Positions 40,401 to 43,400 of a stretch of DNA of 60,000 nucleotides are shown piece by piece. The notes beneath the pieces are model-generated. The model worked only from the letters and a program-made list of their open reading frames with translations. It ran no database searches and had not been told where the DNA came from. Origin of the DNA: Vicugna vicugna (taxonomy: Eukaryota); the NCBI GenBank assembly GCA_013265495.1, contig MU057719.1, positions 870,001 through 930,000 on the forward strand, read 5' to 3'. Position numbers and translations under genes: made by a program. Position 1 is the first letter of the stretch; every line of letters starts with the position of its first letter.

Positions 40401-43400
40401 TGGGGTCCCAGTCAGGAGTCCTTGAGGCCAGGGAGCGGGGGAGAGGAGGTGGGCCCAGGGGTGGGGCCGCTCCAGGGAAGCACCAGTAGTGGCAGCGGTG
40501 GTCTGGCCTGGGGCAGTGGCTTCCTCGTGGGGCGCCGGGCTGGGCGACCCCTGCCCTGCACAGGGCCCGGCCCAGCAGCCCCGCACCGTCACTGGCTTGG
40601 GCAGATGCTGGCAGAAGTCGGCTGGCACGGGCACCTGGGCCCGGGGTCCAAGGCAGGCATCATGCCGGCGCTGAATGCCTTCCCCACACGAGACAGAGCA
40701 CTGCCAGGAAAGAGGGGGAGGAGTCAGGGCTCACCTTGCCAGGGAGTCTGCAGTGACCACAGGCCAGGCAGGCTCTGATACGCTCTTTGCACAACACAGG
40801 AGGCGGATATGTGTGTCCATTCGATAGATAAGAAGACTAAGGCTGAGAGAGGTTACCATGCAGGGGCCACACGGGGAGGAGGAGCAGGGACTCAAGCCCA
40901 GGTCTCTAACTGTCATCCGGAGGCCTCCCTGCCCTCTAAACCCTAGAGCAGGGACCAGGAGGCATGGCTTCCTCCTTCCGCTCTCCAACACTCACCGCAG
41001 CCATGTCTGCCCTGCCATCCGGCCCTGCCCTGCCCTGTCCGAGCTGTCATCTCCCCCGGCCTGGATGCCCAGGGTCCTTCTCACTGAGGCAGCGGGAGGC
41101 TGTCTGCCTCCTCTCCCCTCCATGCTATAAACAAACCGCTATGGGGGGCACCCAGCCCTGTTTACCTTGTCTCCCCAGAGCCTTGCGAGGTGCTGGCGTA
41201 GGGTGGGATTTCCTAATCCGTGTGGGGTTGTCAGCCCTCTGTCTTCTGGCGTCTCCAGACTTCGGGCCTCTCAAGACCTAGCTGCCCACCCTGCCCCATG
41301 TCCTGGGCCTTGCTGTGTCTTCCACCTCCTGACTGCTCCTTCCCCAGCAGACCCGAGTCTCCCCTTCCTTCCGGGGGATCACAGTGAATGAAAGCCCCAC
41401 CAAGGTCCCCAGATGTGAGGCTCCTTTGCTGACGCACTGACCTGCAGCCAGGCGCTGACGTGCCAGCGGTAGGTGCAGGTGGCAGTCATGCAGGGAATGC
41501 GGGTCTGCGGCCGCACCAGACCCGCACAGGCCCGCACATCCACCGCCGTGTCCTGGCCTTGCTCCAGCTGCACGCAGGCCACCGAGCGTGTGGCAGTGCC
41601 GAGACCACAGCTGGCTGAACACGGGCCAAGGGACATGACTTTCCACCTGCAGGGAGAGAAGACCCCAGAGAGAGGTTACGCCTCCCCAGAGATGGCACTG
41701 CCCCATGGGCTCCTCAGACGGTCAACCAGGACAGTTCTAGGCCACTGGGATCCAGAAGTACGGCCCTGAACCCCTCCCGTCTACTCAGGGTAGGACATGG
41801 GCGACTTACATTCTTTTCTGGGCATTTCTGTCTGACCCAGAAGAGCATTTCATTATTTAAAATGCAAAATTACAAAGAAGAAACCACAAGGGAATTGTGA
41901 ACGAAGAAGGTGACTATTCGCCCTTCCCCATCGGGCTCCACCCCGTCTCCGGACCTGTCCCACGTGGCTGCGGCGGTGGGCGCTGTGCCCCAGCTGGCCC
42001 CACCTCGGCTCCACTCAGATGCTGCCTCCTCCACTCTGAAGCCCCCCAGGCCTGCCCACAACACACCGTCATTGGAACCCACAGCACTGCGGGCGTTTTG
42101 CTGGACCGTCACCCCTGACACTGGGTGCAGCCTGCTGGGCGATCTGTTTCCTGTGCCACTGCGCTGCCCTTTAGCCCCCAGGGCCTGGCCCGGCGGCGGC
42201 ACACACCAGGCACTCAGGCTGCTGCCGCACACCTCGGCGCTGCCGATCTGGGCGGGCAGGGCTCCTGCGGCTCTGGGCGAGGCAGCCCCTGGCACTGCGT
42301 GTCCAGCAGGACCTCCTCGTCCTCGTCCTACCCTTGAGCCCGGCCACAAGACAGCACCCTCTGCGCGGCCCCTCCCCCGCAGCTCACACTGCAGGCTGCC
42401 AGTTTGTAACGCCACCTGGAGCAAACCAGCGTCGGGGGCGCCCCTCACTTCCCCAGACTGGGAAGGGCCGGAAAGGGTCTCTCTCTGGGGGCGAATTTCA
42501 CGTCCCCACTGAGAGGCCAGGCACGATGGGCAGAGAACGTACAGAAAATCCCATTTTATGGAAGGGGAAGCCAAGGGCAGACATGTCCAAAGGTGGGGGC
42601 GGGGTGGGGGCAGGGCACCCAAGGGGCCCTGCAAGGATGTGTGCCTGCGGTAGGAACCCCAGCCCCAGCACGCGGACCTGTCCCGCCAGGCCCCTAGTCC
42701 TTCCCGCTGTGCTGCCGCATCGCTCCGACACGACACATCAGACTCTGTGGCCTCCACCAGTCTTGTTTGTGGTCTCCCCCCCCTTTCCCACAGCGACTGC
42801 TCCGGGAGGGCAGGGATTCCTGTCTGTCTTGTTCACTGCTGGGTCCCTGGTGCCGGAACAGCACCTGGGCGTAGTAGGTTCTCAAAAAACAGCAAGTGAT
42901 GAAACAAATGACCCATCAACCACGTGCGCCCACAGCCGCCCAGATCCTGGGTGACGGACTTCACACACTTTAAGCCCCCACAGCCCTCCAAGGCACCGGT
43001 GTGGCTCACTCCTGCAGGGGAGGACGCCAAGGGGCAGGAGCTTACTGGGAGGTGATGACGCCCGTCCAAGATGCCCCCCTAGGTCCTGCTGTCTCTCGGG
43101 AAGGGGCCCACCTGGCAGGGCAGGGCTCCGGGCTGCAGTCCTCGAGGGGTCTGGGCCGAGGTGACGGCCAGCACTTAGAGTGAGGCAGGGGGATGGAGCG
43201 GCCTTGGTCCATCCTCACACAGCGAACAGCCAGCGGCACCTGTCCCCCTCCACAGGTCACTGGGCATGGTGCCAAGGCTCGGGTCTCCCACCTGCAGAAA
43301 GGAAAGGCCAGTGCCCCGCAGGAAGCCACGCCCAGGGTCAGGCTCCTTCCTCCGCGGGGGACCCAGGCTGCTGCCCCTCCGCACAGTCTCCCTCCCCCTG

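Follow-up and report, generated by a model that had tools for sequence, protein, structure and literature searches.

The size of von Willebrand factor is controlled by ADAMTS13, whose distal repeats help to hold the enzyme in a latent state; thrombospondin type 1 (TSP1) repeats adopt a fold in which six cysteines form three disulfides. In some mouse strains, a retrotransposon insertion in intron 23 gives rise to a short ADAMTS13. Here, we describe an ADAMTS13 gene in which the exon for the sixth TSP1 repeat of the human protein (T6) is decayed and a neighbouring, paralogous repeat exon (Tx) is intact. The gene lies on the minus strand of a stretch of 60,000 nucleotides from the vicuna, Vicugna vicugna (contig MU057719.1 of GenBank assembly GCA_013265495.1, positions 870,001 to 930,000; hereafter the window, to which all positions refer). 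The short mouse enzyme resembles this case in that a natural, lineage-level change in the same part of the gene is compatible with a working enzyme; unlike the in-frame exon choice that we propose for the vicuna, it is truncated before T7-CUB2. That the middle repeats vary and that T3-T6 can be dispensed with is already published (PMC8449270 and PMC9826392): according to the former, drawing on Muia et al. (Blood 2019), T3-T6 are missing from pigeon ADAMTS13, and their deletion from the human protein leaves the closed-to-open switch in place. As in the variable vertebrate proteins treated in PMC8449270, the enzyme can do without a middle repeat of the T3-T6 stretch and still be regulated; unlike in those proteins, in the vicuna, a mammal, one cassette exon would decay and its paralogous neighbour would take its place.

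The T6 exon starts at 42415 on the minus strand, behind the acceptor ...ggtttgctccag|, and occupies 42233..42415 (183 nt) when it is read to a GT donor downstream of the ancestral one; an initial annotation of this DNA, which had described the exon as dead by three separate lesions, ended it at 42248. The first lesion that had been claimed, an in-frame TAG, is present at 42330..42328 (cta on the plus strand, 42328..42330), and the corresponding codon is Glu in Camelus, pig, cattle and human. The second, a shortening by 15 nt with loss of a Cys, was also borne out: five codons are missing at 42256..42264 on the minus strand, the exact placement being ambiguous within repeated Glu-Pro-Cys codons, and in the alignment the five residues EPCSP (or PCSPE) are absent relative to Camelus and eight outgroups. 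As a result, T6 of the window has five cysteines compared with six in Camelus, pig, cattle and human.

The third claim, that of a dead donor, was correct for the site itself and not for the exon. At 42246..42247 on the minus strand, AT stands where T6 of other mammals ends in ...CPPR (CCCAG|ATCGGC at 42248|42247; AT at 42247-42246 in place of GT); however, an in-frame GT donor lies 15 nt downstream of the old site on the same strand (42231..42232, GAG|GTGTGC), and T6 read to this +15 donor ends in ...CPPRSAAPR. Because T6-containing Camelus models carry the same RSAAP extension, the AT at the old donor is best read as a donor shift that is old and common to Camelus. Since the donor change is shared in this way, the lesions that appear to be specific to the lineage of the window are two and not three, i.e. 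the TAG and the 15-nt deletion. A U12-type AT-AC intron at CAG|ATCGGC was considered and rejected, on its consensus only.

With X in place of the stop, T6 still matches the Pfam profile TSP1_ADAMTS (PF19030; curated cut-off 23.8 bits) with 33.8 bits over profile positions 7-51 of 55; the neighbouring repeats Tx and T7 score 35.9 and 39.9 bits, respectively, each over positions 1-55. Thus, T6 is recognizable by profile as an ADAMTS-type TSP1 repeat and lacks both the six cysteines and the uninterrupted frame of such a repeat. The splice signals do not set T6 apart from the rest of the gene: its acceptor has 14 pyrimidines in 20 positions (13-18 in the 12 other acceptors of the gene), and the +15 donor matches the consensus at six of nine positions (6-8 in the 12 other donors). 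Because the +15 GT is within the range of the working donors, skipping of T6 would not be predicted from the splice signals by themselves, and their strength provides no argument for it.

A protein search with the T6 exon returned 107 matches, nearly all of them named ADAMTS13, with the best identity (85-86%) to Camelus; no protein of the species itself was among the direct matches. When Camelus and alpaca proteins were mapped onto the window, ADAMTS13 was collinear on the minus strand from 58816 to 37275; within exon bounds, the exons are 88-100% identical to those of dromedary and many are 100% identical to those of alpaca. This exon-by-exon collinearity, together with the high identity to close relatives, identifies the gene as the ADAMTS13 orthologue. 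In the visible gene body (37275..58816, minus strand), the 21 other mapped exon segments are free of stop codons, and the sole in-exon stop in the Camelus alignments is that of T6. The earlier statement that every other visible exon is intact therefore holds, with a run of 347 Ns and a duplication, both described below, as caveats. The gene of the window is close to the alpaca reference, yet not identical to it, as a few residues differ; this places it with the alpaca and llama group of camelids.

Between T5 and T6 the window holds Tx, an intact exon of 180 nt (43112..43291, minus strand) that ends in CSPEPCPAR and matches PF19030. The initial annotation had taken this exon as the neighbour of T6 and had not recognized it as an extra repeat; it is not human T5 but a paralogous repeat, which the mouse reference protein has and the human proteins seen do not. 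Upstream of Tx lies the second exon of T5 (T5a; 43407..43536, minus strand, donor CTG|GTGAGT) and downstream of T6 lies the T7 exon (41442..41646, minus strand), the acceptor of which is joined to the Tx donor in an alpaca model. T5a, Tx and T6 all break a codon after its second base, and the exons that can follow, Tx, T6 and T7, open with its third base; because these phases match, any combination of T5a, Tx, T6 and T7 is in frame. The exon bounds thus confirm the phase 2/2 that had been assigned to T6, and its skipping keeps the frame. The further claim that skipping cleanly deletes TSP1-6 needs to be amended: the protein is not shortened relative to human, because Tx is an extra repeat that the human protein does not have, and the result is the architecture of the mouse reference protein.

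Gene models from close relatives point in the same direction. We examined a 90% cluster around the dromedary protein, of which 15 of 30 members were listed. All three alpaca RefSeq isoforms listed (X2, X3 and X4) have the order T5a-Tx-T7 without T6, and joining 43112 to 41646 in the window, the junction predicted by the initial annotation, reproduces isoform X2; the alpaca annotation already models the T6 skip. Among the 11 Camelus RefSeq isoforms listed, which come from two annotations, eight have Tx followed by T7, one has Tx followed by intron read-through, two have T5a-T6-T7 without Tx, and none has both Tx and T6. Each of the two annotations includes a T6 isoform, in which the reading frame is open and Glu occupies the position of the TAG of the window; T6 is thus disabled in the window and intact in the sister lineage. 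These Camelus isoforms (XP_064346798.1 and XP_074218672.1) contain the same exon as the window, with six shared derived substitutions and the RSAAP extension obtained via the +15 donor; unlike the window, they have an open frame and all six cysteines (one extra in dromedary), and they leave out Tx. Altogether, the models suggest that T6 is most likely left out of the mature mRNA in the vicuna.

In addition, Tx and T6 are found in an either-or manner in the Camelus models, whereas pig, cattle and whale models hold both repeats; this pattern may reflect coupled splicing or be an artefact of model building. The dromedary T6 isoform (P0024) has a Cys at the residue that aligns with about 42285 of the window (LPCPEP), and this residue is Arg (LPRPEP) in the window, in the other Camelus annotation and in every other mammal seen; the result is a seventh, unpaired cysteine, which is a further hint of relaxed constraint. 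In a search for spliced camelid fragments (alpaca Tx+T7 query, shorter proteins, 48 matches), none had camelid-level identity across the junction. One transcript-derived protein (P0126) is Tx-only and covers 100% of the Tx+T7 query; at 74% identity it was rejected as not being camelid.

We compared the amount of change in T6 and in the rest of the gene, using sites with a conservation of at least 95% in non-camelid mammals. T6 has 28 such sites, of which four are changed in the window; the 21 other exon segments together have 416, of which five are changed (Fisher p=0.0013). The deletion and the donor shift account for two of the four changes in T6, and three of the five elsewhere are at exon edges; counted strictly, the difference is 2 of 28 versus 2 of 416 (p=0.021). 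T6 has therefore changed faster than the neighbouring exons. Tx of the window is 100% identical to that of alpaca and 98% identical to that of Camelus, from which it differs at 1 of 59 residues, whereas T6 differs from Camelus at 5-6 of 60 residues in addition to the stop and the gap. Such an excess is not a general property of T6: across 378 pairs from 28 species with both repeats, the T6/Tx difference ratio is 0.88, i.e. T6 differs less. Moreover, Camelus T6 has 10-16 differences from six outgroups compared with 2-12 for pig, cattle and orca; for Tx, Camelus, pig, cattle and orca are alike, with 6-12 differences and no camelid excess. These comparisons argue that T6 evolved faster in camelids and that Tx did not.

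Six derived T6 changes (I20V, Y22S, H27Q, I35V, P37L and Q49P) are common to the window and Camelus, and Y22S falls on one of the highly conserved sites (at least 95% in non-camelid mammals) defined above. The changes V16A and A24G, the stop and the deletion are found in the window only, and R2H and K4E in Camelus only. Because six derived substitutions are shared with Camelus, the relaxation of T6 would predate the TAG, and most of the excess T6 change appears to be older than the split of the two camelid branches. The initial annotation had attributed the lesions to relaxed selection and not to gene loss; this is in agreement with an excess of camelid change in T6 alone and an intact gene otherwise, but the relaxation would have set in before the stop arose.

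The pair of repeats is not confined to camelids. By identity to Tx of the window, models from pig, cattle, sheep, deer, whale, bat, rhinoceros, pangolin, marmoset and anteater (80-94%) as well as from gerbil and rabbit (73-79%) contain this repeat. We classed 121 ADAMTS13 models with recognizable T5a and T7 by their Tx/T6 content: 48 have T6 only, 38 have both, 30 have Tx only (11 camelid and 19 others) and five have neither. One salamander model and one skink model have both repeats, in the order Tx then T6. In a tree of 103 repeat segments, one branch separates the 47 Tx from the 56 T6 rows (Shimodaira-Hasegawa-like approximate likelihood ratio test, SH-aLRT, 99.9); the finer branching is not resolved, because the alignment has 62 columns only. 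Tx and T6 share with mutually exclusive exon pairs their adjacency, similar size (180 and 183 nt), common phase (2/2) and division into two paralogue groups; they do not share the use of exactly one exon per mRNA, given the 38 models with both repeats and the five with neither. Pig, cattle, sheep, deer and whale models are like the window in having Tx (90-94% identical) and T6 (70-75%) in the same order; unlike the window, they include both exons, giving nine TSP1 repeats, and their T6 ends at the ancestral donor. Within artiodactyls, Tx is the better conserved of the two repeats.

The mouse reference protein (NP_001001322.1; UniProt Q769J6) has Tx only, and its sixth repeat clusters with the Tx rows of the tree, whereas only T6 is present in the human and chimpanzee models seen. 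Because the mouse carries a Tx-type and human a T6-type repeat in sixth place, human "T6" and mouse "T6" appear to be paralogues and not orthologues. Two gibbon models (P0119 and P0208) have a Tx-type repeat without its first residues, one of them with a garbled end, which suggests a damaged Tx exon in apes. In full-text literature searches, we found no description of Tx, of camelid ADAMTS13 or of the non-orthology of human and mouse T6; Muia 2019 may cover part of this.

In total, we consider it probable that T6 is a retired cassette exon, deprived of its donor in the common ancestor of camelids and since then mostly skipped in favour of Tx, with eight TSP1 repeats being kept. Between T5 and T7, tetrapod ADAMTS13 would have had Tx and T6 as adjacent paralogous exons that agree in phase. 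In camelids, T6 would have lost its original GT donor in this common ancestor and started to gather changes, most of the mRNA from then on being T5-Tx-T7. In Camelus, the T6 frame would have stayed open, the exon being modelled in minority isoforms only, with the end expected from the +15 donor; on the branch to which the window belongs, T6 would later have gained the stop and the 15-nt deletion that removes a disulfide cysteine. The working protein would keep eight TSP1 repeats with Tx as the sixth, as in mouse: like NP_001001322.1, it would have the order T5-Tx-T7 and no human-type T6, and since the camelid layout equals that of mouse, it is the layout of a working enzyme. We infer the skipping of T6 in RNA and the fixation of its lesions from gene models and one draft assembly; the succession of events is likewise inferred.

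Several points weigh against this account. The T6 acceptor and the +15 donor look usable, so that inclusion of the exon in transcripts is conceivable. Both the TAG and the deletion come from one draft assembly, which has an N gap and a duplication of 744 bp. The alpaca isoform X1 is not among the 15 of 30 cluster members listed. Finally, the gene models are predictions, and numbers of isoforms say nothing on abundance.

One alternative is that T6 is a poison exon, which would be spliced into some transcripts via its acceptor and the +15 donor and cause nonsense-mediated decay, or truncation before T7, T8 and the CUB domains, and in this way tune the output of the gene. The range of splice-signal strengths and the two Camelus RefSeq isoforms that include T6, ending as the +15 donor would give, are compatible with this idea; six RNA-type runs (five of this type on record and one guessed) hold a share of 0.25-0.33 of the sampled sequence words from 40200-43700, a share that is uninformative on T6 itself and was not used for or against its inclusion. 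However, change in T6 is accelerated and not conserved in camelids, contrary to a sequence that is kept by selection, T6 is in none of the three alpaca isoforms listed, and no observation requires a regulatory role. We therefore regard a poison exon as unlikely but not negligible.

Alternatively, the TAG, the deletion or both could be an assembly error or a variant of one individual, and T6 could still be a usable alternative exon as in Camelus. The assembly is a draft with blemishes inside the gene. The run of 347 Ns is at 58098-58444, and Camelus residues ~408-470, which are unmatched, may lie there. Moreover, 44434-45177 and 45178-45921 form a perfect tandem duplication of 744 bp (100% identical) that carries an in-frame ADAMTS13 exon of 126 nt (45025..44900 and 45769..45644); the alpaca protein holds this exon once. 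The duplication is probably an assembly artefact, or else very recent, and as a likely artefact it lowers the trust in single-base calls. Fourteen DNA-type runs hold 0.89-0.95 of the sampled words from 40200-43700, shares that were not used on T6 or the TAG. On the other hand, an error or variant would have to account for two independent lesions as well as the private changes V16A and A24G in one exon of 183 nt, with at most five differences at 416 conserved sites elsewhere. In addition, the alpaca models, from a chromosome-scale assembly, are without T6 in 3/3 of those listed, whereas both Camelus annotations have a T6 isoform. On this evidence, we find an error or individual variant quite improbable. 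Separately from these lesions, positions 43445-43450, in T5a, encode Arg-Thr where alpaca and Camelus have Gly-Ser; the two changes are private to the window and adjacent, in an exon that is otherwise almost identical, and reflect either a species difference or an error.

A loss of the whole ADAMTS13 gene with T6 as its first casualty, for which nothing speaks beyond the T6 lesions themselves, is extremely improbable, and we rejected a whole-gene pseudogene, given that the 21 other exon segments are stop-free, intact and conserved, that 5 of 416 highly conserved sites are changed, three of them at exon edges, and that Tx is so close to its alpaca and Camelus counterparts.

The retirement of T6 in camelids may be one instance of a wider history. 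Tx and T6 would be ancient paralogous cassettes that stood side by side in early tetrapods and of which mammals keep both or one; the sixth repeats of human and mouse would be non-orthologous, camelids would have switched at the loss of the T6 donor, T6 would be dying in the South American branch, and the splicing of the two exons might possibly be coupled in an either/or manner. We advance this joint picture tentatively, as one that may well be right and could also fail in one of its parts; it is the part of this work that is most worth following.

A T6 that is disabled in a mammal, in a gene that is otherwise constrained, backs the experimental claim that T6 is dispensable, and Tx, the better conserved sister repeat, is indicated as the repeat that matters in many species. 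Should the sixth repeats of human and mouse indeed be different paralogues, there would be consequences for epitope maps, for domain numbering and for mouse-human chimeras. Nanobodies, some of them against proteins of haemostasis, are raised by immunising camelids (PMC7590285), and the repeat content of camelid ADAMTS13 could affect what immunised camelids see as foreign. Finally, if the picture of Tx and T6 is true, camelids would provide a dated natural experiment that asks which of its middle repeats ADAMTS13 requires.

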